In this document: positions 1-18,072 of the stretch, piece after piece | How the letters are laid out: each line of letters starts with the position of its first letter | Position numbering within the stretch: position 1 is the stretch's first letter | Virus record (IMG/VR): IMGVR_UViG_2778261505_000007 | Span: 1-25,134 of that record | DNA: 25,134 nt | Source: a virus | Taxonomy: Duplodnaviria; Heunggongvirae; Uroviricota; Caudoviricetes | Direction: 5' to 3' (one strand) | Translations under genes and position numbers: made by a program | The notes under the pieces: model-generated | The model's input: only the letters and a program-made list of their open reading frames with translations | Database searches by the model: none | What the model was told of the DNA's origin: nothing

Positions 1-1251
1 GTGCTTACCGATACAAAATTAAAGAACCTCAAGCCACAGGACAAACTGTACAAAGTTTCCGATCGTGACGGGCTGTATGTAGCTGTGCTTACGTCAGGTA
101 CGGTCTCGTTTCGCTATGACTACCGTATCAACGGTCGCCGCGAAACACTGGTAATCGGGCAGTATGGGCGTGACGGTATCAGCCTGGCAGAAGCGCGAGA
201 AGAACTGATTGCTGCAAAGAAGCTGCTTAAAGCAGGCCAGTCGCCGGCTGCGGCTAAACGTGACGGTATCAAAAAGATTCGTGGTGCCGAGACGTTTGCG
301 GTACATACCGACAGTTATATGAAACACGTCATCCTGGCTGAAAGTACCCGCGCAATGAAGCAGGCAGTGATCGACCGTGACATACTTCCTGTTCTTGGCA
401 ACAAAATGATGACTGAAATTACCACATCGATGGTTCGTGATTTGTGTGACCGGATTGTCGAACGCGGTGGTCGGGCAACAGCAGTACAGGCCAGGGAGAT
501 CATTAGCAGCGTATACCGTCACGCCAATGACCGTGGTCATGGTTTGTTTAATCCTGCGGCTGACATTAAACCTTCGTCTATCGCCATATTTAAACCACGA
601 GAGCGAACACTGACACCAGAAGAAATTGGTCTGTTCTTCCGCACGCTGGATGCCATTGGTGCTATGGGCACTATGAAAATGGCTTTAAAGCTGGTGCTTA
701 TCACTATGGTTCGTAAAGGCGAATTCACCAATGCAACGTGGGACGAAATAGATTTTAAAAAATGGACATGGACAATTCCTTCAGACCGCATGAAGGGAAG
801 CCGGGCGCACGTTATTTACCTGCCAAAACAGGCACAGGATATATTGGTTGGGTTGCAGATGTGCGCTGGTGGAAGTGAATATCTGGTTCCTGGTCGTTAC
901 AATTTCCGGAAGCCATTATCTAATGCCGCACTGAACTCTCTGATCGACAGAACGGTGAAAATAATAAATGAAGATGGTGAGCATATTCAGGGCTTCACCG
1001 TACACGATATGCGCCGTACAGCCAGTACGTTGTTGCATGAGGCTGGTTATCCTTCAGACTGGATTGAAAAGGCTCTGGCACATGAGCAGAAAGGTGTGCG
1101 CGCCGTATATAACAAAGCGGAATACGCCAGACAGCGCGCCTACATGTTGCAGCAGTGGGCCGATATGATTGATTCATGGATTGACGGGGAGCATACGGAT
1201 CTGATTCCGTTCTCCCCGTCGAAGTTTGAGAAGTGGATGGCGGGGGAATAA
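1..1251 (+). CDS. int: Tyrosine recombinase / phage integrase, P4 (IntS)-type
   Basis: 416-aa ORF starting with GTG at nt 1. N-terminal region aligns by eye with IntS-type integrases (MLT..K..K.....Y...D..GLY). C-terminal catalytic signature present (HDMRRT, then Y in VYNKAEY). Confidence 0.9.
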   Translation: MLTDTKLKNLKPQDKLYKVSDRDGLYVAVLTSGTVSFRYDYRINGRRETLVIGQYGRDGISLAEAREELIAAKKLLKAGQSPAAAKRDGIKKIRGAETFAVHTDSYMKHVILAESTRAMKQAVIDRDILPVLGNKMMTEITTSMVRDLCDRIVERGGRATAVQAREIISSVYRHANDRGHGLFNPAADIKPSSIAIFKPRERTLTPEEIGLFFRTLDAIGAMGTMKMALKLVLITMVRKGEFTNATWDEIDFKKWTWTIPSDRMKGSRAHVIYLPKQAQDILVGLQMCAGGSEYLVPGRYNFRKPLSNAALNSLIDRTVKIINEDGEHIQGFTVHDMRRTASTLLHEAGYPSDWIEKALAHEQKGVRAVYNKAEYARQRAYMLQQWADMIDSWIDGEHTDLIPFSPSKFEKWMAGE

Positions 1252-1254
1252 CGT

Positions 1255-1449
1255 TTAATAGTTCTGCTGATTTTCTTCCATCTCGGCTTCTGCTGCCAGT
1301 GATTCAATTTTATCTGCGAATATTGCTGACAGTGTTGCAAATTCAGCATCAGTGACAGCGGGAATTGGAACAAACCTGATCCCGCTGTGTGCAAGCATGT
1401 TTGCAGTTTCAAGGCATTTCCTTAAATCTGCTGGTGATGCCCGGTTCAT
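1255..1449 (-). CDS. Hypothetical small protein (64 aa), translationally coupled to the upstream methyltransferase
   Basis: ATG at 1449-1447 overlaps the methyltransferase stop (ATGA overlap). GGGAG Shine-Dalgarno 8 nt upstream. The longer ORF-track version (to 1569) would overlap the methyltransferase by 124 nt. Confidence 0.5.
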   Translation of the reverse strand: MNRASPADLRKCLETANMLAHSGIRFVPIPAVTDAEFATLSAIFADKIESLAAEAEMEENQQNY

Positions 1450-2108
1450 GCTGCACGCTCCCGCCCCTGGTTGTCTGTTGGTGACAGCGGAGAATTGCTG
1501 AATGCATTTGTTAATCCGCCAATATCCAACGCGTAACCAGGATGTAGTTGCACTGCCGGGTCTTCGCACTGATTACCCCAAACATCGAAGCCATGAGACG
1601 ACTGGCGGGCGAACAGTTCAATGCGAGAAACATCGCCTAACAATTGCACAAGTTTTTCACGAACGACATCTGGTTTTCTTGAATGCTCAAGCCGCGGTGC
1701 GGTAAATGACTGAACGATACCTGCATTAATGCGCGTAGGTAGTTTTCCCTTTACCGCAAACAGGCAATCTTCACTATTGGCGCGAGTCATGTGTCCCATA
1801 CCCATAACCAGTTTATCTTGTTGTCGACTACCACATTTTATCCACGTGAAGCCCTTCATGGTCATCAGACGGAATCCCCAGGCTTCAACAACTTTTAGTG
1901 CTTCGAGTGGTTGTGTTGGCACCCACCACATGGCCAACAGACAGTTTTCAGCGGCCAAATCCCACACAGGAAGGCGGCAGATATCCAGCACACTCATAAC
2001 TGGATATTTAAAACCGGCACCGCGATTACCATCTGCGGCTTTGTCCCGGTATACCCAGGGTGGATCTGCATAGATTAGTGTGTATTTCTTAGTCATAAAC
2101 CACCCCAC
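1446..2108 (-). CDS. N6-adenine DNA methyltransferase, MT-A70-like
   Basis: Translation contains the DPPW catalytic motif (YTLIYADPPWVY) in a ~200-aa protein typical of phage MT-A70/Dam-like methylases. Start may be ATG 2108 or 2096. Confidence 0.85.
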   Translation of the reverse strand: MGWFMTKKYTLIYADPPWVYRDKAADGNRGAGFKYPVMSVLDICRLPVWDLAAENCLLAMWWVPTQPLEALKVVEAWGFRLMTMKGFTWIKCGSRQQDKLVMGMGHMTRANSEDCLFAVKGKLPTRINAGIVQSFTAPRLEHSRKPDVVREKLVQLLGDVSRIELFARQSSHGFDVWGNQCEDPAVQLHPGYALDIGGLTNAFSNSPLSPTDNQGRERAA

Positions 2109-2388
2109 AACATCCTATGCCGCTATAGTCGCCACGGCGAAGGCCGTTACCTTTTGTGATACATTGGTCCCTGCGAACCGCGATCCTTGCACGCTCAACA
2201 TCACCAGAAGCAACATCCATACACTGAAGCCAAAGGTGGGCGGCAATGCGGAACTGCCCTTTTTTCTCTCTTTCAATTGCGCGTTTTTCGATCTCTATCG
2301 CTGCAGGAGTAACGGCAACAACCTTTGAAGGGCTGCGCATTGAAACCTTGTTCATGTGATATTTTTCAAGTCGGCTTAACTTTCTCAC
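2089..2388 (-). CDS. Hypothetical protein
   Basis: ORF in the leftward operon with GTG start at 2388 (alternative ATG at 2355). No recognisable motif. Confidence 0.4.
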   Translation of the reverse strand: MRKLSRLEKYHMNKVSMRSPSKVVAVTPAAIEIEKRAIEREKKGQFRIAAHLWLQCMDVASGDVERARIAVRRDQCITKGNGLRRGDYSGIGCCGVVYD

Positions 2389-2497
2389 TTAATCCAACCC
2401 TCTCTGAAAATTAATGCCAGCAGATAAAGCCATGCTGAAACAGAGGCCAGGAATAAGTACCATCCTGACCATTTGCTCCAGTGCCTTAGCAGCGCAC

Positions 2498-2746
2498 TCA
2501 TGCAGCGTTGCTCACAGGACGATATACACGTTGCTGAACAGGAGGTTTTTTACCCTGGAACTCTGCCGGGCTTGCTGCCTGACGTTCATCAAGCCAACGC
2601 TCAACTTCATCACGGTTCCATGCGCAGCGTTTATCGGTGATATACCAGCGTTTAGGAAATTCCCCTGCGCGCTCCATACGGTCGATAGTGCTCCATGACA
2701 GTGGCACCACCGCCAGGAGTTCCTTCTTACCTAATGCACCTTTCAT
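2498..2746 (-). CDS. AlpA/Xis-like helix-turn-helix DNA-binding protein (putative excisionase or regulator)
   Basis: 82-aa protein with an AlpA/Vis-type HTH signature (LLAVVPLSWSTIDRMERAGEFPKRWYITDKRCAWNRDEVERWL), of the kind found alongside P4-type integrases. Confidence 0.6.
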   Translation of the reverse strand: MKGALGKKELLAVVPLSWSTIDRMERAGEFPKRWYITDKRCAWNRDEVERWLDERQAASPAEFQGKKPPVQQRVYRPVSNAA

Positions 2747-2795
2747 AAATATCTCTCTTGGTTGCAGTGCGGCGCGCGTGGCGCCGCGGTGGTGG

Positions 2796-3677
2796 TTACA
2801 TAGATGTTTCGTTTAATTCTTCCCGACGAACGCTGTAAACGTCGGTGGCTTTTGCCAGCAGTTCGTCATCATCTGAAAGTTTTTGTGCAATGTATTTGTA
2901 AGCCTTATCCAGTTCGGAGACAGTGCTGTAATTCATCGCTGCGCTGGTAAAGGCCATCAGCATTTCTTCTGGATCACGGCTATCCTCTTTACGCGTTTGC
3001 TCATCAGGCTTTTTCGCTGGTTTAGCGTTGATCAGACTGTTCATTCCCGCAGCAGTGGTCGTTTGCGGAGTAATGTCTCGCTCAACGCGCGGTGCCGTTT
3101 CCTGTAATTCGTCAGGGGTGTAAACACCGAGAAGTACATCAGGAGCGTGCAGGCGAGCCCATCGTTTCGTGCAAAGATAGGCAAGCTGCTGGCGCGGATC
3201 CTGTTCCCACAATGGAGAGTTACGCACTCCGGCTTGCGCCATACTGATGGTAAGCTCACGGGGTTCTGCTTCTCCTTTAAGAACTGCTGACACAGTTACC
3301 GTCAGATTCGGTGATTTATCTGTTTTGCCGTTAACATTCGACCAGTCACCGCTCCAGCGATAATTCAGGCGTGTCGCTAGCAGGCTGGAAGAGGATACGA
3401 CCGCGTTTACCAACTGTGCTTCGTAGCCTAACGTTCCGTTTACCACATGCGTTTTCTGCGCCACGGCGAAAGGGTTCATTCCCCACTGTGCCGCCTGCAT
3501 GGTCACCGCCAGACAATCGGCAGGTTTGCCTTCAAGATGTTTCGGTACAGTCGCTTTGCTTTGTGACATCAACTCCGCGAAACGCACCAGTTGATTCATG
3601 CCCTCCGGGCTGAAGATTGCCGCAGCAGTACCTACAGTTGCGCCTGGTTGTGATGTGATTGCGATATCATTGCTCAT
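2796..3677 (-). CDS. ssDNA-annealing recombinase, Bet/RecT family
   Basis: 293-aa protein with segments resembling lambda Bet (ERDITP, SPLWEQ..RQQL..L..KRWARL). Its start overlaps the stop of the upstream exonuclease (ATGA), the classic exo-annealase pairing. Confidence 0.8.
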   Translation of the reverse strand: MSNDIAITSQPGATVGTAAAIFSPEGMNQLVRFAELMSQSKATVPKHLEGKPADCLAVTMQAAQWGMNPFAVAQKTHVVNGTLGYEAQLVNAVVSSSSLLATRLNYRWSGDWSNVNGKTDKSPNLTVTVSAVLKGEAEPRELTISMAQAGVRNSPLWEQDPRQQLAYLCTKRWARLHAPDVLLGVYTPDELQETAPRVERDITPQTTTAAGMNSLINAKPAKKPDEQTRKEDSRDPEEMLMAFTSAAMNYSTVSELDKAYKYIAQKLSDDDELLAKATDVYSVRREELNETSM

Positions 3678-4495
3678 ACGTACATATCCTGTTTACGTGC
3701 CCAGTCAGGGCGTTTAATAATTTCCACTCCGCCCCATTCATCGTTGATGCGGCATTCGTGATAGGTATTCAGATCCCGGCGGAACAGAGCGTGCCCGGCA
3801 TCGACATCTGGCGCATCCAGCTCGAACACGCGTACCGGATACCGACCACAATCAATGCTTTCGCTCACGGCAAGAAAGAAAAAACCATGCGGCTGACCAG
3901 TAACCATCATTGCGCCTTCGCGGTACATTGCGTCCTGCACGTGGTAGCGGAATTCCTCGATGTGGCGTGCAAAACGGTCCATATCTGCAACCTTTTTCAC
4001 GTCGACGATCACGTTGTGCTCGTTCAGCCATTTGTCTGGACGAATGCGGCACAACTCACCAGTCTCTTCATCGTTCCAGTACATTGATGCTTCGCAGTAA
4101 CCAGGTGCTTCCAGCATCCAGCGTGCAGCCGGGTGAGCCATTGCGCTATCACGCATCAGCTCCAGTTTTCGCCACTGCTCGACATCAAGTACCGTAATAC
4201 CCATATCCGCCACATCACTAAGAAATGCTTCTTCGTCAGCTTTACCTTGTTTTGTCCGACGATCGAATTTCGGTGAAACAATGAAGCGTTTGTCGAACTC
4301 TCTAGGCTCCAGAAGCAGACAGTGCAATGCGGTTCCCATATCCAGTGCAGACTTTTTCTCTTCGTCTTCTGGTGCTGCCTGAACCCATTTAAGAAGCGCC
4401 GGATTCTTGGCAACCATGTCCAGTTGCGACTTACTCACGCCGTCACCGGCGTGGTAGTCTTCGTTGCTGATGTCGAAATAAATTCCCGGTTTCAT
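3674..4495 (-). CDS. RecE-like exonuclease, PD-(D/E)XK fold
   Basis: N-terminus MKPGIYFDISNEDYHAGDGVSKSQL is typical of the exodeoxyribonuclease VIII C-terminal domain family. A D...IVDVKK nuclease motif is present. Confidence 0.8.
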   Translation of the reverse strand: MKPGIYFDISNEDYHAGDGVSKSQLDMVAKNPALLKWVQAAPEDEEKKSALDMGTALHCLLLEPREFDKRFIVSPKFDRRTKQGKADEEAFLSDVADMGITVLDVEQWRKLELMRDSAMAHPAARWMLEAPGYCEASMYWNDEETGELCRIRPDKWLNEHNVIVDVKKVADMDRFARHIEEFRYHVQDAMYREGAMMVTGQPHGFFFLAVSESIDCGRYPVRVFELDAPDVDAGHALFRRDLNTYHECRINDEWGGVEIIKRPDWARKQDMYV

Positions 4496-4806
4496 GCCGC
4501 GTCCCTCTGTCCATCAAGCTGATCCGCCAGATCCCAGCGGGCGATAATTGCCATTGCCTCTCGCCGATAGGCATCCATCAGTTCTTCGAACTCAGGGCTG
4601 TCTTTAGCAGCCTCCAGTACTTCCTGACGAACGCCTTTGCCTGTTACAACGTCGAAAGTTGAGGACAGTTGATGAAGTCGGATGCTCTCAATCAGTTCAA
4701 CTTGTCGGTCATATAGCTGTTCTGACAGGCGGTAGTCCTTGTCGAATGCCAGCATGATTTTTTGAAGATTTTTCTGCTGATTAACGTTCATTATCAGCCC
4801 TCCCAT
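4492..4806 (-). CDS. Hypothetical protein (about 99 aa if started at ATG 4791)
   Basis: ORF whose stop overlaps the exonuclease start. No recognisable motif; sits where host-nuclease inhibitors often lie, but that is unassigned. Confidence 0.5.
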   Translation of the reverse strand: MGGLIMNVNQQKNLQKIMLAFDKDYRLSEQLYDRQVELIESIRLHQLSSTFDVVTGKGVRQEVLEAAKDSPEFEELMDAYRREAMAIIARWDLADQLDGQRDAA

Positions 4807-4946
4807 ATCTCGTTATCGTTGGCCACATCGCGAGCTTCTTTGCTGACGAAAGCCCACTTGATGCCTTCCTGTAAGGTGCAGAACTTCCAGCTCATGAATC
4901 CGCATGCAGTAACGCAGTACCAACCGTTGATGATTTTCCACTGCAT
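4784..4946 (-). CDS. Small Cys/Trp-rich hypothetical protein (50 aa), first gene of the leftward early operon
   Basis: Not in the ORF track (under 60 aa). ATG at 4946-4944 with GAGGT Shine-Dalgarno 8 nt upstream, stop at 4786-4784. Translation MQWKIINGWYCVTACGFMSWKFCTLQEGIKWAFVSKEARDVANDNEIWEG. Confidence 0.35.
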
Positions 4947-4965
4947 AACTTGTTACCTCGGTCTG

Positions 4966-4980
4966 TTACCGTTGAGGTAA
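4966..4980. promoter_or_regulatory. Operator-like palindrome OL1 (TTACC-GTTGA-GGTAA)
   Basis: Perfect 5+5 inverted repeat with 5-bp spacer, abutting the putative -10 of the leftward promoter. Confidence 0.6.
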
Positions 4981-5008
4981 TGATTATGCGTATTTGGTTT
5001 GATGTCAA
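4980..5008 (-). promoter_or_regulatory. Putative leftward early promoter (P_L-like)
   Basis: On the minus strand: -35 TTGACA (plus 5003-5008), 17-bp spacer, -10 AATCAT (plus 4980-4985). Flanked by OL1 and OL2. Confidence 0.45.
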
Positions 5009-5027
5009 TAGATATGAGTTAAAAAAA

Positions 5028-5042
5028 TTACCTATTAGGTAA
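5028..5042. promoter_or_regulatory. Operator-like palindrome OL2 (TTACC-TATTA-GGTAA)
   Basis: Perfect inverted repeat 62 bp centre-to-centre from OL1, 20 bp upstream of the -35. Confidence 0.6.
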
Positions 5043-5051
5043 TAGTATAGG

Positions 5052-5078
5052 CAATAAAAAAGCCGCCAGAAGGCGGCT
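5052..5078 (-). terminator. Rho-independent terminator downstream of the repressor gene
   Basis: Hairpin AGCCGCC-AGAA-GGCGGCT followed on the minus strand by TTTTTATT, 22 bp past the repressor stop. Confidence 0.6.
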
Positions 5079-5099
5079 TACTTACTGAAAAATATGATT

Positions 5100-5684
5100 T
5101 TATTGTTTGTTTTTTTCGTTCTGGTTGATGACAAATTCAATGTAACTTTCGATCTTTGCCTTCTCTGTTTCAGGTAACAATGCGTAGCGCGAGCGGTCAT
5201 AGTTGATAGTCGCTGGGTCGTGCGGGTGAATCAGTAATTCATATCCGTGACGCCCAAATGCGGATGCAACATTCTCCAGGGTGGAAATGGAAACGCTGAC
5301 CTCATTGTTTAACAGGCGGCTGATTGTTACCTGGGCGACGCCGGATGCGCGGTGAAGTTTTCCCTGCGTTGAAAGGTCGCGGCTTTCGCTCATCCAGCGT
5401 TCCAGGTTGTGAGCCGCCAGCTGGCCAATGTCGCTTGGGCCGACAGGCTGAAAACCTTCCTGAGAAAGCGAGCGATCGATATCAAGCCAGTTACGGGGTT
5501 TATTGGCGGCAGCTTCAATTTTTCGTGCAACCTGGTCGCCGATAACCTTCTTGCCAAGAGCCCAGCGGTTTACCAGATTTGCCTGAGTTCCAAGTTTTTC
5601 AGCCATCCGCGTCTGAACACCATTGAATTCACGGTCGATCAAGTCGTTGAGATTTTGCCTGCGGACGTCCTGGATACTTTTCAT
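5100..5684 (-). CDS. CI-like prophage repressor, two XRE-type HTH regions, no S24 peptidase domain evident
   Basis: 194-aa ORF flanked by operator clusters and divergent from a cro-like gene. HTH-like segments TRMAEKLGTQANLVNRWALGKKVIG and GVAQVTISRLLNNEVSVSISTLENVASAFG. No GDSM-like serine or Ala-Gly cleavage motif found. Confidence 0.7.
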   Translation of the reverse strand: MKSIQDVRRQNLNDLIDREFNGVQTRMAEKLGTQANLVNRWALGKKVIGDQVARKIEAAANKPRNWLDIDRSLSQEGFQPVGPSDIGQLAAHNLERWMSESRDLSTQGKLHRASGVAQVTISRLLNNEVSVSISTLENVASAFGRHGYELLIHPHDPATINYDRSRYALLPETEKAKIESYIEFVINQNEKNKQ

Positions 5685-5739
5685 TTTCTGGAAAATCGCC
5701 TCATATCTGAATCAGAAGATGATTCAATTTAAAGCAATA

Positions 5740-5754
5740 TTACCCAACAGGTAA
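5740..5754. promoter_or_regulatory. Operator-like palindrome OR-a (TTACC-CAACA-GGTAA)
   Basis: Perfect inverted repeat in the cI-cro intergenic region. Confidence 0.6.
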
Positions 5755-5784
5755 ATGCACCTCATGGGTAACTATCCTTGATTT

Positions 5785-5813
5785 TTGTTACCTTATAGGT
5801 GAATATTTATTAT
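5785..5813 (+). promoter_or_regulatory. Putative rightward promoter for cro (P_R-like)
   Basis: -35 TTGTTA (5785-5790), 17-bp spacer, -10 TATTAT (5808-5813), about 25 bp upstream of the cro ATG. Confidence 0.45.
5788..5802. promoter_or_regulatory. Operator-like palindrome OR-b (TTACC-TTATA-GGTGA, one mismatch)
   Basis: Lies between the putative -35 and -10 of the rightward cro promoter. Confidence 0.5.
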
Positions 5814-5838
5814 CTGAAATAAATATCAGGCAATAGCT

Positions 5839-6069
5839 ATGAGCGATAACGGACATTTCGATTTCAAAAAGCACTGGCTTGCACTTACTCCGGATGAGCG
5901 TGAAGCCTTCGCACAGGAAGCCGGAACGACGAGTCACTATATCCAGACTCACTTAACAGGTAAGCGCAAAATGCCAGGTAAGGTATTGATGGATGGGCTT
6001 TTTAAAGCCTGTAAATCAAGACAATGGCTGCGCTCAAAAGCAGAACTGGCATACTTCTTCTACTCATGA
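5839..6069 (+). CDS. Cro-like small HTH regulator (YdaS/Cro-like)
   Basis: 76-aa ORF divergent from the repressor, followed by a strong terminator. HTH-like segment LTPDEREAFAQEAGTTSHYIQTHLTGKRK. Confidence 0.6.
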   Translation: MSDNGHFDFKKHWLALTPDEREAFAQEAGTTSHYIQTHLTGKRKMPGKVLMDGLFKACKSRQWLRSKAELAYFFYS

Positions 6070-6090
6070 TATCCAGCCACAACCCTCTGT

Positions 6091-6114
6091 AGACCGCCAC
6101 CCGGCGGTCTTTTC
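6091..6114 (+). terminator. Rho-independent terminator after cro (tR1-like)
   Basis: Hairpin AGACCGCC-ACCC-GGCGGTCT followed by TTTT. Confidence 0.6.
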
Positions 6115-6124
6115 ATATCTATTC

Positions 6125-6139
6125 GTACCTCAAAGGTAA
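6125..6139. promoter_or_regulatory. Operator-like palindrome (GTACC-TCAAA-GGTAA, one mismatch)
   Basis: Sits just past the cro terminator and upstream of the small Cys/His ORF. Confidence 0.45.
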
Positions 6140-6219
6140 TAAAAAACCAAATCTGGTTGATCTTTTTTTTGTGTCAGCACAAAATGACCGTAATCCCAAT
6201 ACTAATAACAGGGCTTACC

Positions 6220-6420
6220 ATGGAAATCATTACACGTATTGATGCCGCAAAGCGCGGACTTAAACGCTACTACACCGGAAAAACATGTAAGCACGGACAT
6301 GACAGTGAACGCTGGGTTTACAACGGACACTGTGTTGAGTGCACCATGGAATCAAACCGTCGTATCAGGGCAGAGATTAAGCAGATCATGATTAATTCCT
6401 CCCCACAACACTCAAGCTGA
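6220..6420 (+). CDS. Small Cys/His-rich putative zinc-binding protein (about 66 aa)
   Basis: ORF 6157-6420 in the track; an internal ATG at 6220 (or 6184) is the more likely start. Spacing CKHGH...HCVEC suggests a zinc-binding site. Occupies a cII-like position but no homology is asserted. Confidence 0.4.
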   Translation: MEIITRIDAAKRGLKRYYTGKTCKHGHDSERWVYNGHCVECTMESNRRIRAEIKQIMINSSPQHSS

Positions 6421-6435
6421 TAGCGGAGATTAATC

Positions 6436-7251
6436 ATGAGCAGACATGCAACAGATTGGGCCTGGGAGACAGATCCAGGCAGCTCATCATTAAAGCTCAT
6501 ACTGCTCTCGATGGCTGACAGAGCCGATGAATATAACCTCTGCTACCCCAGCATAGAACGCCTCGTTAAAGACACTTGCCTGAATAAAAAAACCGTACAG
6601 GCCGGGCTTATATCACTCATGAGAATGGGGCTTATTTCAGATACCGGAGAGAGAAAGGGGGCGACGAAAAGAGTGCGGGTTTTCTCTCTTAATATAACCA
6701 AAAAAGGGAACATTAAAGGCAACCTGGAAGGGTGTAATGAACCCGAAAACGGTAATGTTCCCGAAAACGGGAATATACCCAAAAACGGGATGTTGAATGA
6801 TCCCAAAAACGGGATGTTGAATGATCCCAAAAACGGGATCCAGAACCAGTCATATAACCAGTCATATAACCAAGAGAGGGAGAGCAGGACAAAAACCGAG
6901 GATTCTGTGCCTCATGACCCCGGCGCAAACAACGCCGTGATGAATAACTTTGTTCCTCCTGGTGGGCCAGGGCAATTAGGCAAATTTGTCATGCATGAAC
7001 AATGGCAGCCATCAGATGACTTTCTTCGGAAAAGCTCATTGCAGGGGATCTACCTGGACAGTCTGCCAACGGCACAGGAACTTGCAGAGTTCAGAATTTA
7101 CTGGATGGCTGAGGGTAAGGCATACCATCAGGCACAGTGGGAGCAGAAGCTGGCAAGGCGGCTGCAGATTAGCAGACAGAAGCAATCAACATTACCTGAT
7201 AACAACGTTCCGCACTGGAACAGCCCTGAAGCATGGGAGGATTTCTTGTGA
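6436..7251 (+). CDS. Replication initiator (lambda O-like) with origin iterons inside the gene
   Basis: 271-aa ORF immediately upstream of a lambda P homolog. The coding sequence contains five tandem DNA repeats, giving the peptide repeats PENGN/PKNGMLND; this matches the lambdoid arrangement of ori inside O. Confidence 0.75.
   Translation: MSRHATDWAWETDPGSSSLKLILLSMADRADEYNLCYPSIERLVKDTCLNKKTVQAGLISLMRMGLISDTGERKGATKRVRVFSLNITKKGNIKGNLEGCNEPENGNVPENGNIPKNGMLNDPKNGMLNDPKNGIQNQSYNQSYNQERESRTKTEDSVPHDPGANNAVMNNFVPPGGPGQLGKFVMHEQWQPSDDFLRKSSLQGIYLDSLPTAQELAEFRIYWMAEGKAYHQAQWEQKLARRLQISRQKQSTLPDNNVPHWNSPEAWEDFL
6742..6867. repeat. Putative origin of replication: five direct iterons (CCCRAAAACGG core, 18-24 bp units) plus a 2x AACCAGTCATAT repeat
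   Basis: Direct repeats read at 6742, 6760, 6778, 6802 and 6826; the 6778 and 6802 copies are identical 24-mers. Followed by a tandem 12-mer at 6844-6867. Confidence 0.7.
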
Positions 7252-8033
7252 ACAACGTTTTTACCGCGATACAAAACCGTGACGGAGAAGCCCTTTCTCG
7301 CATGTCAGGTTATGAGCATCAGTACACCAACAATGACAACGTGGTGAACATGTCAGCAGAGAGGCTTGTTGATGCCCTTTTCAAACAGCTGAAACAACTG
7401 TTTCCGGCGGCAGTGGTAACCAACCTGAAGACGCCAGAGCAGGAAGTTGCTGCAAAACAGCAGTGGATTGCTGCGTTTGCCGAAGGGGGGATCCGAACCC
7501 GTGAACAGGTTTCTGCTGGTATGCGCCACGCCCGCGCCAGTGAGTCTCCGTTCTGGCCGTCGCCAGGGCAATTCATCAAGTGGTGTAAAGACAGCAAGAT
7601 GGTTCTTGGCGTCACCATTGACGATGTGATGGCGGAGTTTCACCGGTACAGCAAGGAAAAAAGTTTATATCCTGGTGGTCCAGAAAGATTCCCGTGGCGA
7701 CATCCGGTTATGTACTGGGTCGTATGTGATACCCGCCGTGCAATGTATCAGCGCCAGCTTAGCGAGATTGAGGTTGAGAAACACGCGCGCAGGCTGCTCG
7801 ATGATTGGGCGAAAAAGGTGGCTTCCGGACAGCAGATACCCGATCCGGTGATCAGCATACAGGCAAAGCCAGAACCCATGAGTACACCTCCGGACACAGG
7901 GAGAGACGTTTACCATCCACCAGGGCGAAGTTTCGGGTGCATGCCTAACGCCGCCACCCTTGGGGGAATAACACCGGCGCAGTGGCTGATGGAGGAATAC
8001 AGGCGGGGAAAGGCGGCAGGATTTATCAAGTAA
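7233..8033 (+). CDS. Replication protein P-like (DnaB helicase loader)
   Basis: Clear similarity to lambda P in blocks (AGMRHARASESPFWPSPGQFIKWC; YPGGPERFPWRHPVMYWVV). Start may be GTG 7248 overlapping the O stop, with GGGAGG Shine-Dalgarno at 7234-7239. Confidence 0.85.
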   Translation: MGGFLVNNVFTAIQNRDGEALSRMSGYEHQYTNNDNVVNMSAERLVDALFKQLKQLFPAAVVTNLKTPEQEVAAKQQWIAAFAEGGIRTREQVSAGMRHARASESPFWPSPGQFIKWCKDSKMVLGVTIDDVMAEFHRYSKEKSLYPGGPERFPWRHPVMYWVVCDTRRAMYQRQLSEIEVEKHARRLLDDWAKKVASGQQIPDPVISIQAKPEPMSTPPDTGRDVYHPPGRSFGCMPNAATLGGITPAQWLMEEYRRGKAAGFIK

Positions 8034-8038
8034 TACCA

Positions 8039-8058
8039 GCGCGATAGCGCATTTTTTT
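8039..8058 (+). terminator. Weak putative terminator after the P-like gene
   Basis: Short GCGC-GATA-GCGC stem followed by ATTTTTTTA. The stem is only 4 bp. Confidence 0.3.
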
Positions 8059-8070
8059 ACGCTCAAATAA

Positions 8071-8085
8071 TTACCTATCAGGTAA
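8071..8085. promoter_or_regulatory. Operator-like palindrome (TTACC-TATCA-GGTAA)
   Basis: Perfect site 20 bp upstream of a -35-like TTGATT. Confidence 0.55.
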
Positions 8086-8104
8086 TAAAATATTCTAAAC
8101 TCTA

Positions 8105-8133
8105 TTGATTTCGTGTCTTATGTGGTTTTTAAT
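8105..8133 (+). promoter_or_regulatory. Putative promoter for the 8151-12117 operon
   Basis: -35 TTGATT (8105-8110), 17-bp spacer, -10 TTTAAT (8128-8133). Same geometry relative to the two palindromes as at P_L. Confidence 0.45.
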
Positions 8134-8147
8134 TACCTCAGAGGTAA
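8133..8147. promoter_or_regulatory. Operator-like palindrome (TTACC-TCAGA-GGTAA)
   Basis: Perfect site abutting the -10 and overlapping the Shine-Dalgarno of the 8151 gene; 62 bp centre-to-centre from the 8071 site. Confidence 0.55.
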
Positions 8148-8150
8148 ATC

Positions 8151-8498
8151 ATGAGAAAACAGATGCAGGCTCTTGGTCGACTCAAAACAGGCCAGATGAA
8201 CAAAACAGAATCTGCGTATTGCCAGCACCTTGAGCTGCGTAAACGTGCAGGGGAAATCGCCTGGTATCGATTCGAGGGTATCAAGCTGCGGTTAGCTAAT
8301 AACACGTTCTATACGCCCGATTTCGCTGTGATGCTCGCCACCGGCGAGATGGAGCTGCACGAAGTGAAAGGGGGATTCTGGACCGATGACGCCAGAGTGA
8401 AAACCAAAGTCGCCGCAGATCAGTATCCGTTCCGAATCATCGGGGTAACGGTTAAGCCAAAGAAAGCAGGTGGTGGCTGGAACATCGAAGAGTTCTGA
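8151..8498 (+). CDS. DUF1064-like phage protein
   Basis: 115-aa protein with a pattern typical of the DUF1064 family common in lambdoid replication/nin regions (YTPDF...HEVKGG). Family call is from memory, not a search. Confidence 0.55.
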   Translation: MRKQMQALGRLKTGQMNKTESAYCQHLELRKRAGEIAWYRFEGIKLRLANNTFYTPDFAVMLATGEMELHEVKGGFWTDDARVKTKVAADQYPFRIIGVTVKPKKAGGGWNIEEF

Positions 8499-8559
8499 AT
8501 CGACGATCTTTTTAGTTATCAATGTAATCAATAAGTTATGTGGATAAGCGAGGGTAAAG

Positions 8560-9165
8560 ATGGAAAGTAATATCAAAGAGTTAGTTGCCGCCGGGCATGA
8601 GATGGCTTCGGAACTGAAAGCAGAATGTGGTGCCGTTGATATGCGTAGTGTGGCAAAGCTGCTCAGCGATTTGGCAACGCAACTGGAAGTGCAACTGGCG
8701 CGTGCTAATGCGCTGGCGGCGGAGAATGCTCGCTACTCAATGTCAGCAGGGCAAGCAGACCAAAGAATGTCGGAGTCGTGCGCAGTTCGGGAGGCACTTG
8801 GGTTTAATCGGTCAGCTGACGACGTGTCACCATCTGACCTGGTAGATAAAATCAAATCTATCATAGCTGAATGTGATGCTATCCGTAGCGCACACCCTCA
8901 ACCACTTGGCCCTGTAATGGATGCTGCAATCGATGCATTTAATGCAGAGGAGATGCCTGAAACCGGAATGCTTAACGCGTACTTCATCCTGCGTGACAGC
9001 ATCACGGTGCAAACTCCGTCCACTGACGCCTTCCTGGCTGAAGTGCGGGCGCGGGGTGTGGAGATGTTTGCTGCCAGCCTGAAGGTTGTTGGTGGTCAAG
9101 AGCATCCATATTCATCGTTGGCTCACGAGTTCGCAACCCAGCTTCGCAAAGGAGGCAACCAGTGA
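8560..9165 (+). CDS. Hypothetical protein
   Basis: 201-aa ORF with good Shine-Dalgarno (GAGGGTAAAG ATG). No recognisable motif. Confidence 0.5.
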   Translation: MESNIKELVAAGHEMASELKAECGAVDMRSVAKLLSDLATQLEVQLARANALAAENARYSMSAGQADQRMSESCAVREALGFNRSADDVSPSDLVDKIKSIIAECDAIRSAHPQPLGPVMDAAIDAFNAEEMPETGMLNAYFILRDSITVQTPSTDAFLAEVRARGVEMFAASLKVVGGQEHPYSSLAHEFATQLRKGGNQ

Positions 9166-9806
9166 GTAACCGTTTTTACATGATGTGCTTGCGTGAAACT
9201 GTGGGTAATAACGCCTCATTCCATTGCCATAACGGCAATGGTTACAGTTCTGATATCGATCGCGCTCATGTTTACACGCTGGAAGAAGCCCAAAAAGCCT
9301 GGAATTGTGGGCGAGATATCGATCAGCCTGTTTGTGCCGATAGTGTGGATGCAATGGCTGTGTGGCACGTTGATTGCCAGTACATCCCTACAGAAAGCCT
9401 GATTGAGTCAGATTGCACTGCGTATGTGGCCTACAAAAAAGGTAGCTGGAACGGCAACGATGTTTACTGGCTTCAACACGGTGGATTGCCAACAGATGAC
9501 TTCAGTAAAGCGACCATCTTTAGCGTCGCCAACAAAAACGAACCAGGAATAGTTTGGTTGCCATTTTCCATTGCTGATGCAGCAAAGCGCCGGACGTTCA
9601 ATATCAATAACTTTAACCGCAGAACAATGGTTCAGGGCGCAGGTTTGGTCATGCCTGACTGGTTGAAAGAGCAGAACAGAAGAAAGAAGTCGCGAAGCGG
9701 GAAGGTGCGTTGGAATTGTCCGCATTGCGGAAAAATAACCTGGCAGTACAGCCCATATGATTTTGAAGGCTGTAGTGATTACAACTGTGAAGGATGGCGA
9801 GAATGA
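9162..9806 (+). CDS. Hypothetical Cys-rich protein with C-terminal zinc-ribbon-like motif
   Basis: 214-aa ORF with GTG start overlapping the previous stop and AAAGGAGG Shine-Dalgarno. C-terminus WNCPHCGKITWQYSPYDFEGCSDYNCEGW. Confidence 0.5.
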   Translation: MSNRFYMMCLRETVGNNASFHCHNGNGYSSDIDRAHVYTLEEAQKAWNCGRDIDQPVCADSVDAMAVWHVDCQYIPTESLIESDCTAYVAYKKGSWNGNDVYWLQHGGLPTDDFSKATIFSVANKNEPGIVWLPFSIADAAKRRTFNINNFNRRTMVQGAGLVMPDWLKEQNRRKKSRSGKVRWNCPHCGKITWQYSPYDFEGCSDYNCEGWRE

Positions 9807-10444
9807 CAATTGACTATCAGGTACTGCGTGAGGCGGCAGAAAAGGCAACGTGTGGTGAGTGGTCGCTCGAATATGGAAAGGGCCGATTTGATGGTGATGA
9901 TGCGCTAATTCATCGTGAAGTTGCTGGATATATTCCCATTTGCAGAATTGAAGGAGCGCATCCTGAAAGCGGTTTCGATGAAGATTTCCAAACTGAACAG
10001 CAGGCCAATGCTGAATTCATCGCCGCAGCCAGTCCAGCTACCGTGCTGGCGCTGCTGGACGAGCTGGAGCATTACAAATCACGCGAAGAGCGGGTTACAA
10101 AGCTGGTTATGGATAACTCGACAAGTTGGAATGCTCTCTACAAGAAACTGAAAGACGTAGAGAAGCGCATTGCAGAACTGGAAGCACGGGAAATAAAACC
10201 AGCCAAAGGTGAAGTTCTTGTCGTTGTTTCTGGTTTTACTGGTTGCGGAAAAAGCGCCATTGCCGGGGAAATAGAAATTGCGATGAAAGCTATTGGTGTA
10301 CCGGTACAGTGGACTAATGGCGATGCGGAAAAGCGCATGACAGGAGCTGACTGGCTGACAGCGATTGAGATGTACAAACCAACAGTGCGCATCGTGGAAG
10401 TTAATGTGCCACGCGCCGCTGGCATTCGCATCAAAGGAGAGTGA
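9794..10444 (+). CDS. Ead/Ea22-like protein
   Basis: Contains the segment ANAEFIAAASPATVLALLDELE characteristic of the lambdoid Ead/Ea22-like family, followed by a coiled-coil stretch. Confidence 0.6.
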   Translation: MARMTIDYQVLREAAEKATCGEWSLEYGKGRFDGDDALIHREVAGYIPICRIEGAHPESGFDEDFQTEQQANAEFIAAASPATVLALLDELEHYKSREERVTKLVMDNSTSWNALYKKLKDVEKRIAELEAREIKPAKGEVLVVVSGFTGCGKSAIAGEIEIAMKAIGVPVQWTNGDAEKRMTGADWLTAIEMYKPTVRIVEVNVPRAAGIRIKGE

Positions 10445-10445
10445 T

Positions 10446-10667
10446 ATGGCTAACTCATTACTTAAAACATGCAACAACTGGCAGATTCAGAGGGCGGAGA
10501 TTTTATCTCGCAATCCAGATATGGCAATGACAATTGATAACCTGGATACGCTAATTGAACGGACCGTGCGTTCTGCAATTGATATAGCACATCGAGTGGA
10601 TTGGGATTTCAGAGAAGCGGAGCGACTCGCTAAAGAGCAGGCGAAAGCAGCGGGAAAAGGAGAGTGA
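10446..10667 (+). CDS. Hypothetical protein (73 aa)
   Basis: ATG at 10446 with AGGAGAG Shine-Dalgarno; the ORF-track version starting at 10365 overlaps the previous gene. Confidence 0.45.
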   Translation: MANSLLKTCNNWQIQRAEILSRNPDMAMTIDNLDTLIERTVRSAIDIAHRVDWDFREAERLAKEQAKAAGKGE

Positions 10668-10668
10668 T

Positions 10669-11436
10669 ATGACCACTTTCACCGACAAAGAACTGATTAA
10701 AGAAATCAAAGAGCGTATCAGCAGCCTGGACGTTCGAGACAATATTGAACGCCGGGCTTATGAAATTGCACTGGCATCGCTGGAAGCAGATCCAGTTGCT
10801 TATATTTTCAAACATCCTGCCGGGAAATTATTCTGGGCTTTAACGGATGAAAGCAATAAAGAGCAACCGGACGTTATTCCTGTTTATGCTGACTCACCTG
10901 CGCCGGTTGTGCCGGATGAAATAGACGTAAACGATGTACCAAGGGCGGTGACATATTTCAAGACACACAGAGATTGTTACGCAGATGGCTGGAACGCCTG
11001 CCACGCTGCCATGCTTCAGGGTAGCCAACCTGTAAGCCAAACTTACAACTTGCCAGAATTAATCGAAGGCATGGAAGTTTCCATTGATGTAAGCACTTGT
11101 GATGCTGATTTAGGTAATCGCTATTTCGGCACCGTCACCGAGGCGTTAGAACTTGATACAGCCAAGAATGGTTACATCCTCCTGGTTCAGGACGCAGAGC
11201 CAAACTTCGATGTAAATGGCAACTCTCCGGTAACTCCGGATGGTTGGATAAGCTGTAGTGAGCGAATGCCGAACGAAGAAGATGTTTTGGTTTATTGCTC
11301 AGACACAAAAGAGCAGATGGTAGGGTTTCACAAAGGTAAAGGGTTATTTCAATTCTTTTACATGAATGGTGTTGAGGGGGTATGTGAGCCGTCACACTGG
11401 ATGCCGCTACCAGAGCCGCCGCAGGAGGTGAAGTGA
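10669..11436 (+). CDS. DUF551-like phage protein
   Basis: C-terminal region with the HWMPLPEPP signature of the DUF551 family. Confidence 0.6.
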   Translation: MTTFTDKELIKEIKERISSLDVRDNIERRAYEIALASLEADPVAYIFKHPAGKLFWALTDESNKEQPDVIPVYADSPAPVVPDEIDVNDVPRAVTYFKTHRDCYADGWNACHAAMLQGSQPVSQTYNLPELIEGMEVSIDVSTCDADLGNRYFGTVTEALELDTAKNGYILLVQDAEPNFDVNGNSPVTPDGWISCSERMPNEEDVLVYCSDTKEQMVGFHKGKGLFQFFYMNGVEGVCEPSHWMPLPEPPQEVK

Positions 11437-11786
11437 TGGACTATTCACAGTTAAGTGATTTTGAAATTAACAGAATGGTAGGAGACATAATTTTTAAAGG
11501 CCTTTGGGCGTGTAAACCGGAAACATCAGGGAATAACACCAACAAATGGTATTACGGAAATACTGATACAACTTTTGAGCCATTAAACCCTTTACCTGAC
11601 TACTGCAATAATCCATCGGATGCATGGCCTATTATTGTTGATAATAAAATCAGTCTAACCTGCCACCAATCTCGCGGTGAGTGGTCAGCTGTTTTTAATG
11701 CCGAGAACATTTGCTTTCATGCGAATAATCCACTCCGAGCCGCCATGATTGTATTTCTCATGATGCAGGAAAATCAGAATGGCTAA
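11436..11786 (+). CDS. NinX-like (DUF2591-like) protein
   Basis: N-terminus MDYSQLSDFEINRMV resembles the NinX family of lambdoid phages. AGGAGGTG Shine-Dalgarno; ATG overlaps the previous stop (TGATG). Confidence 0.55.
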   Translation: MDYSQLSDFEINRMVGDIIFKGLWACKPETSGNNTNKWYYGNTDTTFEPLNPLPDYCNNPSDAWPIIVDNKISLTCHQSRGEWSAVFNAENICFHANNPLRAAMIVFLMMQENQNG

Positions 11787-12117
11787 ATCAGCATCAGAGC
11801 GCAAAGCCGCTCAGAGAGCCAGACAAGCTGCATCTGGTGTGCGTAAGCTGGAGATTGTGCTTGATGCTCAGGAAATTGAAATGCTGGAGCGTAACTGTGC
11901 CACGCGTCGCCCCGGGCGTGCGCCTTACGAATTTGGGGAGTATATAGCGTTACTGATCCGCCAGGATGATGCACGCGTGCGCGGGCGTATAAAATCGATT
12001 AGCAGAAAACGTTGCGGTAAGTGCGGCGAGAAAGTTCCCGTTAATTCATGCCCGTGTAATGGTGACTCGCAATGCTGGGTGACTAAAGGCTGGCATGAAA
12101 CTAAATTAATAGTGTGA
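11779..12117 (+). CDS. Hypothetical basic protein with putative DNA-binding N-terminus and C-terminal Cys cluster
   Basis: 112-aa ORF; N-terminal basic/helical segment (SERKAAQRARQAASGVRKLEIVLDAQEIEMLER) and C-terminal CGKCGEK...CPCNGDSQC motif. Last gene before the terminator and the terminase genes. Confidence 0.45.
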   Translation: MAKSASERKAAQRARQAASGVRKLEIVLDAQEIEMLERNCATRRPGRAPYEFGEYIALLIRQDDARVRGRIKSISRKRCGKCGEKVPVNSCPCNGDSQCWVTKGWHETKLIV

Positions 12118-12166
12118 CATGTCACGAGTAGATTATGCATGATGAATTTGATGGGTTTTGAATACT

Positions 12167-12193
12167 GCCGCCAACTATGGCGGCTTTATTTTG
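12167..12193 (+). terminator. Rho-independent terminator upstream of the terminase genes
   Basis: Hairpin GCCGCC-AACTAT-GGCGGC followed by TTTATTTTG. Confidence 0.55.
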
Positions 12194-12203
12194 CATGGTA
12201 CTA

Positions 12204-12218
12204 TTACCACAACGGTAA
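12204..12218. promoter_or_regulatory. Operator-like palindrome (TTACC-ACAAC-GGTAA)
   Basis: Perfect site 18 bp upstream of the terminase small subunit ATG. Confidence 0.55.
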
Positions 12219-12221
12219 CAA

Positions 12222-12236
12222 TTACCAGGGTGGTTA
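12222..12236. promoter_or_regulatory. Operator-like palindrome (TTACC-AGGGT-GGTTA, one mismatch)
   Basis: Immediately adjacent second site, overlapping the terminase small subunit Shine-Dalgarno and start. Confidence 0.4.
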
Positions 12237-12832
12237 TGATGCCTGCTGAACCTAAAACCTATAAACGCAAATCAACGCAATTTAAGCCACTAACCGCAAT
12301 GCAGGAGGCTTATTGCCAGTCATACATCAAAACGCCTGAAAACCAGACTCAGGCAGCGATTAACGCAGGATTCTCCCCAAATACAGCGGCAGTTAAAGCC
12401 AGTGTCATGATGCGCGATGAACGCATTCAAAAACGGATTGCCGAGTTGATGGAGGAGCGCAACAAACGAATGCGCGTCAGTGCCGATTACGTTCTCATGC
12501 GCCTGGTGGAGATCGACCAGATGGACGTGATTGATATCCTCAACGACGATGGGAGCCTTAAGCCAATCCGCGAGTGGCCGAAAATCTGGCGCACTACGCT
12601 TAGTGGCTTTGATCTGTCATCGACCATCATGAACATGAACGAGGATTCGATAGAGACAATCCTCAAAAAAATTAAATGGCCTGACAAGGTGAAGAACCTC
12701 GAACTGATTGGTAAGCACGTCGACGTCAACGCATTCAAAGAACGCCTGGATGTTAATGTGAATGTGACAATTGCTGATCGCATAGCGGCAGCCAGGAAGC
12801 GACTCAAAGAACGTCAGGATGGTAATCAGTGA
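12236..12832 (+). CDS. Terminase small subunit
   Basis: Translation has the pattern typical of phage small terminases (LTAMQEAYCQSYIKTPENQTQAAINAGFSPNTAAVKASVMMRDERIQKRIAEL). True start is taken as ATG 12236/12239 because the ORF-track N-terminal extension runs through a terminator. Confidence 0.8.
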   Translation: MMPAEPKTYKRKSTQFKPLTAMQEAYCQSYIKTPENQTQAAINAGFSPNTAAVKASVMMRDERIQKRIAELMEERNKRMRVSADYVLMRLVEIDQMDVIDILNDDGSLKPIREWPKIWRTTLSGFDLSSTIMNMNEDSIETILKKIKWPDKVKNLELIGKHVDVNAFKERLDVNVNVTIADRIAAARKRLKERQDGNQ

Positions 12833-14298: not shown

Positions 14299-14301
14299 TT
14301 T

Positions 14302-15150
14302 TTACTTTTGTGTTTTTGATTTTCTTTGATGGGTGGAATTTAAACCACCATTTATATTTACTAGAGGATTATTCAATAATGTACTGATTTCTGGATTGTT
14401 AATTCCAGTAACGCCAAGTTTCTTTACGGACTCATTAAGGTCTTGTAATGATTTTAGACCTACAAACCCATTAGCAATTGTATTATTTGTTGCCAAAGGA
14501 ATGTTTTTCTTATAGGACTCATATTCGTTTTTTAAATTTTTGTGGGCTTTTTCTAGATTTTCTAGTTTAGATGTTGTTTCATGAATAACCTTAGATAATT
14601 CTAAAATACGAGCTTGTGCTGCGCGCAGTTCTGTCTCCCTCTCTTTCAATTCAGATGTGAGTTGTCCCATTCTGTCTTTTGAAAGAATTATTTCCTCTTT
14701 CATGTCTTGAATGTTTTTTTCAGCGCCTGTTTTTACTTTTTCGTAAGTAATGTCTTTTTTAGCCAGCAATCTCTGTAGCCGTGTTTCACGTTGTATTTTT
14801 CTTGCCTTCCGGTGATTTTCGATTGAGTCATTATTATCAAGAGGCTTTGCTTGCCATACGTTAATGATATTGTTTACCCATGGTAATAGGCAGCAGATAG
14901 TAATTACAGATAAGCATGGATAAAACATAACAGTTTTCCATGTGCTGTTATCTGAGATGTATGAAATTTTATCTATTATATTTGATTTGCTAAAAAATAG
15001 ATAAAGAAGTGATTTCCAGTTGAAGGCGCACCAGGACATAACAAAAGCACCTAGCACAGGGTTTTTAGCTCGATGCACGGCAGTATTGGCAGTAGATAAA
15101 AACAGCTCTTTGAACGATTCGAACATACTAATTACCTTAAAGTTTTTCAT
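14302..15150 (-). CDS. AT-rich gene: membrane-anchored coiled-coil protein of unknown function (about 282 aa)
   Basis: Opposite strand to all flanking late genes and visibly AT-rich. Two hydrophobic segments (PVLGAFVMSWCAFNWKSLLYLFF; TVMFYPCLSVITICCLLPWVNNIINVW) followed by a long charged heptad-like region. Preferred start ATG 15150 (AAGGT Shine-Dalgarno); the longer track ORF to 15222 would translate through a terminator hairpin. Confidence 0.6.
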   Translation of the reverse strand: MKNFKVISMFESFKELFLSTANTAVHRAKNPVLGAFVMSWCAFNWKSLLYLFFSKSNIIDKISYISDNSTWKTVMFYPCLSVITICCLLPWVNNIINVWQAKPLDNNDSIENHRKARKIQRETRLQRLLAKKDITYEKVKTGAEKNIQDMKEEIILSKDRMGQLTSELKERETELRAAQARILELSKVIHETTSKLENLEKAHKNLKNEYESYKKNIPLATNNTIANGFVGLKSLQDLNESVKKLGVTGINNPEISTLLNNPLVNINGGLNSTHQRKSKTQK

Positions 15151-15154
15151 GATT

Positions 15155-15169: not shown

Positions 15170-15184
15170 TTTGTGGTCATCAGG

Positions 15185-16083: not shown

Positions 16084-16097
16084 CCGGAGTCATTGAA

Positions 16098-18070: not shown

Positions 18071-18072
18071 TC

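Follow-up and report, generated by a model that had tools for sequence, protein, structure and literature searches.

At positions 5100-5684 of the window, by which we mean the whole 25,134-nucleotide stretch of DNA analysed, the reverse strand carries an open reading frame with an ATG start, rep, whose product is a 194-aa lysogeny repressor of the SPC32H-Rep family. Searches with tblastn revealed that this protein is 100% identical to gp40 of phage phiV10, to ORF21 of vB_EcoP_ZX5 (hereafter ZX5), and to proteins of phiv142-3, PAS61 and other phages, and the phiV10 record describes gp40 as a 'putative transcriptional repressor, two helix-turn-helix motifs'. Around the gene, window positions 4900-6500 are 98.3% identical to phiV10 31887-33487, while further along the sequence positions 12118-25000 correspond to phiV10 1-12480. 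The window belongs to a prophage of the phiV10 type, a Uetakevirus (epsilon15-like podovirus), and the ORF encodes its Rep, which in E. coli prophages of the phiV10/epsilon15 type is the known lysogeny repressor. Its orthologue in epsilon15, gp38, shares 42% identity with it and is labelled 'repressor' in a record in which the operator sites are also marked; the major repressor of epsilon15 is said to have been identified experimentally by Kropinski et al. in 2007. Overexpression of the ZX5 protein, which is identical to the product of rep, blocked the lytic cycle and lowered endolysin and holin transcripts by more than 99.9% (PMC9782041).

The initial annotation placed the repressor gene between OL and OR operator clusters, an arrangement that our motif search bears out, with two sites to the left of rep and three to the right, overlapping promoter-like hexamers. 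We counted 11 copies of the palindrome TTACC-N5-GGTAA, with at most one mismatch allowed, in the window, where 0.39 would be expected by chance, a count that none of 100 shuffles reached, and ATTACC-N5-GGTAAT sites are annotated as 'repressor' binding sites in the epsilon15 GenBank record. On the left, an exact match to the motif (TTACCGTTGAGGTAA, 4966-4980) abuts the -10 hexamer of a strong leftward promoter-like site, P_L (TTGACA-17-AATCAT, 5008-4980, reverse strand), found by a promoter scan, and a second palindrome (ATTACCTATTAGGTAAT, 5028-5042) lies just upstream of the -35 hexamer, so that the promoter is bracketed by the two; in the epsilon15 record, the 17-bp form of the second site carries a protein_bind annotation, 'repressor'. 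An intrinsic-terminator-like hairpin (5060-5079, reverse strand), with an 8-bp stem containing six GC pairs and a T run, follows rep and is an annotated terminator in phiV10. On the right lie the operator-like sites TTACCCAACAGGTAA (5740-5754), GCACCTCATGGGTAA (5757-5771, degenerate, with two mismatches) and TTACCTTATAGGTGA (5788-5802), the last of them between the -35 and -10 hexamers of a P_R-like rightward promoter (TTGTTA-17-TATTAT, 5785-5813, forward strand; same scan). This promoter precedes a divergent cro-like early gene of 76 aa (5839-6069, forward strand), which is phiV10 gp41 and matches phrog_35, 'transcriptional repressor', at E 8.7e-13. Past the terminator of the cro-like gene (6091-6110) the motif search found a further operator-like site (6125-6139), followed by two in the intergenic gap after the replication genes (8071-8085 and 8133-8147) and two around the start of the small-terminase gene (at 12204 and 12222, together spanning 12204-12236). 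The remaining sites, at 15155 and 15772, are in or near gaps between genes.

Domain searches agree with the initial annotation that Rep contains two HTH-like regions and no recognisable S24 peptidase domain. Pfam HTH_3 matches Rep over two stretches, the better at residues 106-147 (E 1.2e-9), weaker HTH-type matches (YdaS_toxin, DUF739) cover residues 20-61, and both halves of the protein fall in transcriptional regulator or repressor families of PHROGs. A Pfam search to E values as high as 10 returned no Peptidase_S24 match in Rep, and neither an Ala-Gly nor a Cys-Gly dipeptide occurs anywhere in its 194 aa. A profile built from six aligned Rep homologues and compared with all PDB sequences found SPC32H Rep (E 3e-103); everything else that it returned was a weak match to HTH domains, and none of the matches was an S24 chain. 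The six homologues, drawn from phages of E. coli, Enterobacter, Klebsiella and Salmonella, share 66 invariant alignment columns distributed over both domains, with a variable linker; since all of them are 193-198 aa long, Rep is no truncated S24 repressor.

Rep belongs to the Rep/Ant family of the Salmonella podophage SPC32H, whose genome record labels the two genes rep and ant and whose Rep is the protein of PDB entries 5D50 and 5D4Z. Residues 1-190 of the window's Rep align with residues 2-197 of 5D50 chain A, 'Repressor' (199 aa), at E 4e-42, and its C-terminal half aligns with 5D4Z, which comprises Rep residues 92-198, at E 4e-20. Identity to SPC32H Rep is 42% overall and is distributed unevenly, the N-terminal domain being the most similar (54%), followed by the C-terminal domain (39%) and the linker (22%). 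By homology with SPC32H, we infer that DNA binding belongs to the N-terminal HTH domain only (residues 1-70; 5475-5684, reverse strand), in which the weak Pfam matches at 20-61 are joined by repressor matches to phrog_5736 and phrog_12107 at 1-76. The C-terminal HTH_3-like domain (residues 89-190; 5115-5420, reverse strand; 5d4z_A, E 4.1e-20) holds the stronger of the Pfam HTH_3 matches, is the equivalent of the crystallised SPC32H fragment 92-198, and would provide the surfaces for dimer and tetramer formation and for Ant docking. Kim et al. 2016 (PNAS) reportedly established that SPC32H Rep 92-198 is the oligomerisation and Ant-docking domain, with the N-terminal domains of Rep binding DNA and Ant docking on the C-terminal domains. 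The match to PDB sequences settles the predicted fold of Rep; a single-sequence AlphaFold2 model (mean pLDDT 44.9, pTM 0.22) was unusable.

The partner gene of SPC32H, ant (86 aa), is divergent from the tailspike gene. In the same place phiV10 carries gp24, a 'hypothetical protein' in its record. It shares 88% identity with SPC32H Ant, and its match in the PDB is 5D50 chain E, 'Anti-repressor protein' (E 2.9e-46). An 85-aa Ant lies beside the tail-fibre gene in phiV10, ZX5, phiv142-3 and the complete prophage of E. coli MS 198-1, which encodes a Rep 100% identical to that of the window, an Ant 88% identical to SPC32H Ant, and a LexA box, TACTGTATAAATATACAGTT, 20-39 nt upstream of the ant ATG. 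Counting as LexA-box-like any site with at least 17 of 20 matches to TACTGTATATATATACAGTA, we found exactly one site each in phiV10, SPC32H, ZX5 and phiv142-3, always directly upstream of ant, with scores of 17-18. The LexA-controlled antirepressor that the initial annotation suggested looking for in the rest of the prophage is present, with its LexA box, in every close relative examined, including the prophage with the identical Rep. Of eight aligned Uetakeviruses, seven have an intact LexA box upstream of ant, and all eight share an unchanged Rep-operator-like palindrome some 50 nt farther upstream. The two genes also occur together, with full-length Rep in 36 phage records and Ant in 35 of them, and with rep in 537 of 5426 complete E. 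coli genomes and ant plus its LexA box in 529. Ant has no Pfam family, its PHROG family (phrog_450) is labelled 'unknown function', and most of the 35 phage records, those of phiV10 and ZX5 among them, call it 'hypothetical protein', as do all three E. coli genomes among the matches listed.

Within the window, as previously noted, no antirepressor is found: tblastn with SPC32H and phiV10 Ant and three Bro-N antirepressors as queries returned no match, Pfam scans of 19 of its ORFs gave no antirepressor domain, and no LexA box reaches at least 17 of 20 matches. Two CTGT-N8-ACAG matches (15242 and 19784) were rejected as LexA boxes, as they have GC-rich centres, neither reaches 13 of 20 consensus matches, and their number is at chance level, with 7 of 100 shuffles giving two or more. 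What keeps ant out of the window is the end of the source contig, about 9 kb before the position that ant occupies in MS 198-1. Specifically, the last 10.6 kb of the window match the end of contig NLVO01000014.1 (GCA_002510435.1) at 100% identity, and that contig ends 2 nt past the window. The MS 198-1 prophage, whose counterpart of the window's final 4 kb is 99.4% identical, has its ant gene about 9 kb beyond the point matching the window end. The L010 contig, 99.99% identical to the window, stops just before ant; we rejected loss of ant in L010, since MS 198-1, which has the same gene order here, carries a 242-aa gene between its Bro-N gene and ant, which would place ant farther out than the L010 flank that was compared.

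We consider it highly probable that Rep is non-cleavable and that a separate, LexA-gated Ant relieves repression in the phiV10-type prophage. In the lysogen, a Rep tetramer would bind ATTACC-N5-GGTAAT palindromes through its N-terminal HTH domains, at sites overlapping the two divergent early promoters that flank rep and at a few more intergenic positions, and, having no protease domain, Rep would not itself be cleaved. DNA damage would instead activate RecA, and the resulting self-cleavage of LexA would free the SOS box overlapping the promoter or leader of the 85-aa ant gene beside the tail-fibre gene. The newly synthesised Ant, as a tetramer, would then dock on the C-terminal domains of Rep dimers, split the Rep tetramer and remove it from the DNA, whereupon the early promoters would fire. 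The observations that we contribute to this scheme are the homology of Rep and Ant to a crystallised pair, the lack of S24 features in Rep, the operator motif with its excess over chance, and the fact that ant, preceded by its LexA box, is present and conserved in relatives whose Rep is identical. The literature on homologues supplies the tetrameric state, the binding of Ant, the control by LexA and the response to DNA damage, and this particular prophage would by inference pass through the same induction steps.

In several Salmonella prophages the SOS response leads to LexA self-cleavage and to the synthesis of an antirepressor, which inhibits the repressor through contact between the two proteins; Kim and Ryu 2013, on SPC32H, is among the sources that a review names for this (PMC7380047). 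SPC32H Rep is described as a tetramer on DNA whose DNA-binding pairs are drawn from different dimers, and its tetrameric Ant as binding two Rep dimers and breaking the Rep tetramer (PMC9638917). Among phages of the phiV10 type, treatment of ZX5 lysogens with mitomycin C increased the free-phage titre from 1e7 to 1e9 PFU/mL (PMC9782041), and a microcin that damages DNA gave 21- to 47-fold induction of phiV10-species prophages resident in E. coli isolates from the gut (bioRxiv 10.64898/2026.05.26.727859). A protease-less repressor that answers DNA damage is what a LexA-gated antirepressor predicts. The suggestion made from the repressor sequence alone, that induction is unlikely to use RecA-stimulated self-cleavage and may proceed by way of an antirepressor, is supported, and the mechanism is the one reported for the homologous SPC32H Rep.

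Several results nevertheless count against this explanation. The presumed Ant-docking domain of Rep is only 39% identical to that of SPC32H, and one LexA half-site is degenerate in the Klebsiella Uetakevirus. A simple scan found no sigma-70 consensus promoter upstream of ant, and the placement of the ant promoter is therefore only inferred. In addition, the only experiment on a phage with exactly this Rep, that on ZX5, used as antirepressor a Bro-N protein and not the small Ant (PMC9782041).

This Bro-N protein is an example of a second antirepressor that phiV10-type phages carry, a protein of about 230 aa in which a Bro-N domain is fused to an Ant-like C-terminal domain. Residues 150-226 of ZX5 ORF4 (231 aa), the 'anti-repressor' of the ZX5 paper, match PDB 5D50_E at E 1e-13, and the MS 198-1 copy of the fusion matches phrog_450, the family of the small Ant, at E 4e-36. 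The ZX5 study tested the fusion, and its Ant-like domain and the small ant gene went unnoticed there. Directly upstream of the fusion gene lie an isrK RNA (RF01394, 68-78 bits) and a C4 antisense RNA (RF01695, 61-78 bits), both above Rfam gathering thresholds, in five relatives (phiV10, ZX5, phiv142-3, L010 and MS 198-1); Rfam searches found neither RNA in SPC32H or in the window.

Could the fusion, gated by isrK and C4 and possibly also by Rep, be the main inducer, with the small Ant in an auxiliary role? The Ant homology at the C-terminus of ZX5 ORF4 and in the MS 198-1 copy is in keeping with such a role, as are the position of the two RNA genes in the five relatives and, in L010, two Rep-operator-like palindromes upstream of the RNA genes; overexpression of ZX5 ORF4 also reduced lysogens about 1000-fold and repressor transcription by 75% (PMC9782041). 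We nonetheless judge this arrangement unlikely. SPC32H has no fusion gene, and by the published account Ant alone suffices there; the epsilon15 locus around ant also contains no such gene, and the phiV10 copy is frameshifted into gp23 and gp22, with the loss of most of the Ant-like domain. The Ant-like domain of the fusion is, moreover, only about 40% identical to Ant, and there is no LexA box near the fusion gene, so the fusion alone does not explain induction by DNA damage.

A combination of the two, in which the LexA-gated small Ant and an isrK/C4-gated Bro-N::Ant-like fusion act as two antirepressor inputs into one non-cleavable Rep, is a tentative proposal that the sequence comparisons raise and that we hold to be possible but doubtful. 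If true, the Rep-operator-like sites upstream of the fusion could provide positive feedback as Rep fails, or a route to induction that is independent of the SOS response.

Far less probable is RecA-stimulated self-cleavage of Rep at a cryptic or highly diverged protease site, for which the general precedent of lambda CI, P22 C2 and LexA and the DNA-damage inducibility of phages with this Rep are the only arguments. The S24 search to E 10 and the search for Ala-Gly and Cys-Gly sites were both negative, two HTH-type domains, homologous to those of the crystallised SPC32H Rep, take up all 194 aa, and a LexA-boxed ant is conserved alongside Rep. Reviews likewise class SPC32H induction as antirepressor-mediated and not cleavage-mediated (PMC7380047). 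Equally remote is the idea that the ORF encodes an accessory XRE-type regulator or antitoxin-like protein in place of an immunity repressor: one record annotates it as 'VapI antidote', and its matches include generic HTH_3 and YdaS-type domains and a weak similarity to HigA-antitoxin HTH domains (E 0.05-0.9), but it lies between divergent early operons with operator clusters on both flanks and no toxin gene adjoining it, its epsilon15 orthologue is labelled 'repressor', its homology with SPC32H Rep is full-length, and the identical ZX5 protein, when overexpressed, cut endolysin and holin transcription by the more than 99.9% noted above (PMC9782041).

Since Rep has the same sequence as a repressor that has been annotated and tested for function, the finding itself is already known: both the repressor and its induction mechanism have precedents, in the tested protein and in a family with a solved structure. 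What is mildly novel is the two-antirepressor architecture, together with the much greater conservation of Ant than of Rep, a hint of cross-induction between immunity types. Ant is 64-88% identical against 42-78% for Rep; when the E. coli phages are compared with the Uetakeviruses of Salmonella and with Tyrion, Ant identity is 85-88%, with the same 42-78% for Rep. Because Ant is so much more conserved, it may act across immunity types, and these comparisons suggest that one prophage's Ant may co-induce co-resident Uetakevirus prophages.

The absence of S24 from a prophage repressor rightly predicted an antirepressor route in this case. The SPC32H-type Ant is invisible to Pfam, and approximately 530 E. 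coli genomes carry it. As phiV10-type prophages reside in about 10% of complete E. coli genomes, the correct induction circuit matters for predictions of which prophages respond to DNA-damaging drugs and bacteriocins.

Compared with the classical cleavable repressors lambda CI, P22 C2 and LexA, Rep has the same role, the same place between divergent early promoters, multiple operators, and RecA as the final trigger. It differs from them in lacking the S24 domain, the Ser-Lys dyad context and the Ala-Gly site, and its inactivation would be indirect and non-proteolytic. A like scheme is found in coliphage 186 Tum, in Salmonella Gifsy-1/3 and Fels-2 (Lemire et al. 2011), and in N15 AntC, where the repressor is also protease-less, the SOS signal also passes through LexA, and a small antirepressor gene far from the immunity region also inactivates the repressor reversibly by protein binding (PMC7380047). 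Relative to these, the SPC32H-type Ant splits the repressor tetramer and does not mask a DNA-binding surface (PMC9638917). The second antirepressor of the relatives recalls the P1 immI operon (c4 RNA-icd-ant) and the IsrK-AnrP system of Gifsy-1, in that isrK and C4 RNA genes precede an antirepressor gene, although the antirepressor of the relatives has an SPC32H-Ant-like C-terminal domain and its RNA gating is putative.

Also among the closest systems are those of phiV10 and ZX5, whose gp40 and ORF21 show no difference from Rep at the protein level and for which the small Ant had gone unrecognised in papers and records alike, and that of SPC32H, a member of the same genus, Uetakevirus. The prophage shares with SPC32H the position of rep, the two-domain layout and size of Rep (194 vs 198 aa), the operator half-sites TTACC/GGTAA with a 5-bp spacer, and, in its relatives, the partner Ant (88% identity) beside the tail-fibre or tailspike gene with the same LexA box. 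The operator motif falls at corresponding positions in SPC32H, with three sites on the left, three on the right, two after the replication genes (35972 and 36034), one before terS (12-26) and one beside ant, so that three left-hand sites there compare with two in the window. The operator spacer sequences also differ, and because Rep is only 42% identical and the spacers are unlike those of SPC32H, the two phages probably represent different immunity types. Finally, to the Rep/Ant pair that they have in common with SPC32H, phiV10-type phages add the second, putatively RNA-gated Bro-N::Ant-like gene.

Phages of the phiV10 type carry a second antirepressor, encoded outside the window, in which a Bro-N domain and a C-terminal domain resembling the small antirepressor (Ant) of Salmonella phage SPC32H are fused in one protein. 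Genes for isrK (RF01394) and the C4 antisense RNA (RF01695) lie directly 5' of this Bro-N::Ant gene in these phages, and the locus is at positions 32165-33086 in the complete prophage of E. coli MS 198-1 (NZ_CP146687.1), 7552-8464 in phiV10 and 1078-2006 in ZX5. The study of ZX5 assayed the Bro-N::Ant protein as "the" anti-repressor and remarked on neither its Ant-like domain nor the small ant gene (PMC9782041).

In phiV10, gp23 (Bro-N) and gp22 (7552-8231) jointly resemble a frameshifted copy of a fusion gene of the ZX5 ORF4 type, matching ORF4 with 99% identity over residues 1-181 and, in a different frame, with 98% identity over residues 187-231; either the gene is truly a pseudogene or the split is an error in sequencing. 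In phiV10 and ZX5, the Bro-N::Ant gene has ant as its neighbour, whereas in MS 198-1 and in the contig 99.99% identical to the window (L010) they are parted by a gene of 242 amino acids (33251-33979, plus strand, in MS 198-1), which belongs to phrog_6762 and has an endonuclease VII/HNH-like C-terminus.

Among six Uetakeviruses (alignment A2; loci L003, L006-L009 and L013-L017), Ant is much more conserved than its target, the lysogeny repressor Rep. Between the E. coli phages and SPC32H, identity reaches 88% for Ant but 42% for Rep and 39% for the Rep C-terminal domain, a gap in sequence conservation that makes it possible that antirepression crosses immunity types.

Elsewhere in the window, the genes for RecT and a PD-(D/E)XK (DUF3799) exonuclease (2796-4495, minus strand) are separate, in contrast to the single fused "recET" annotated in the phiV10 record. 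The late region holds a tRNA-Arg gene with anticodon TCT (15373-15449, minus strand), common to the window, SPC32H and MS 198-1. Between the terminase gene and this tRNA, on the opposite strand, lies a 306-aa open reading frame (14302-15222, minus strand) that matches phrog_4780, of unknown function (E 1e-121), and in which no Pfam domain was found; as relatives carry a different gene of 139 amino acids at this position, the site is likely a slot for moron or cargo genes. The source contig (GCA_002510435.1, NLVO01000014.1) ends 2 nt past the window end at 25134, an assembly break that splits the prophage within the internal-virion-protein genes. The MS 198-1 prophage carries, at its right-hand end, a gene for the Hfq-binding sRNA STnc490 (RF01405, 146 bits; 39127-39250, plus strand) that adjoins an IS200C transposase gene.

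Palindromes resembling the Rep operator (TTACC-N5-GGTAA, at most one mismatch) also occur outside the immunity region, in or near several intergenic gaps of the window: after cro (6125-6139), after the replication genes (8071-8147), around the terS start (12204-12236) and near the tRNA (15155-15169 and 15772-15786). SPC32H carries such palindromes at places equivalent to those of the window. The recurrence suggests that Rep represses genome-wide, or that the motif has a second use.
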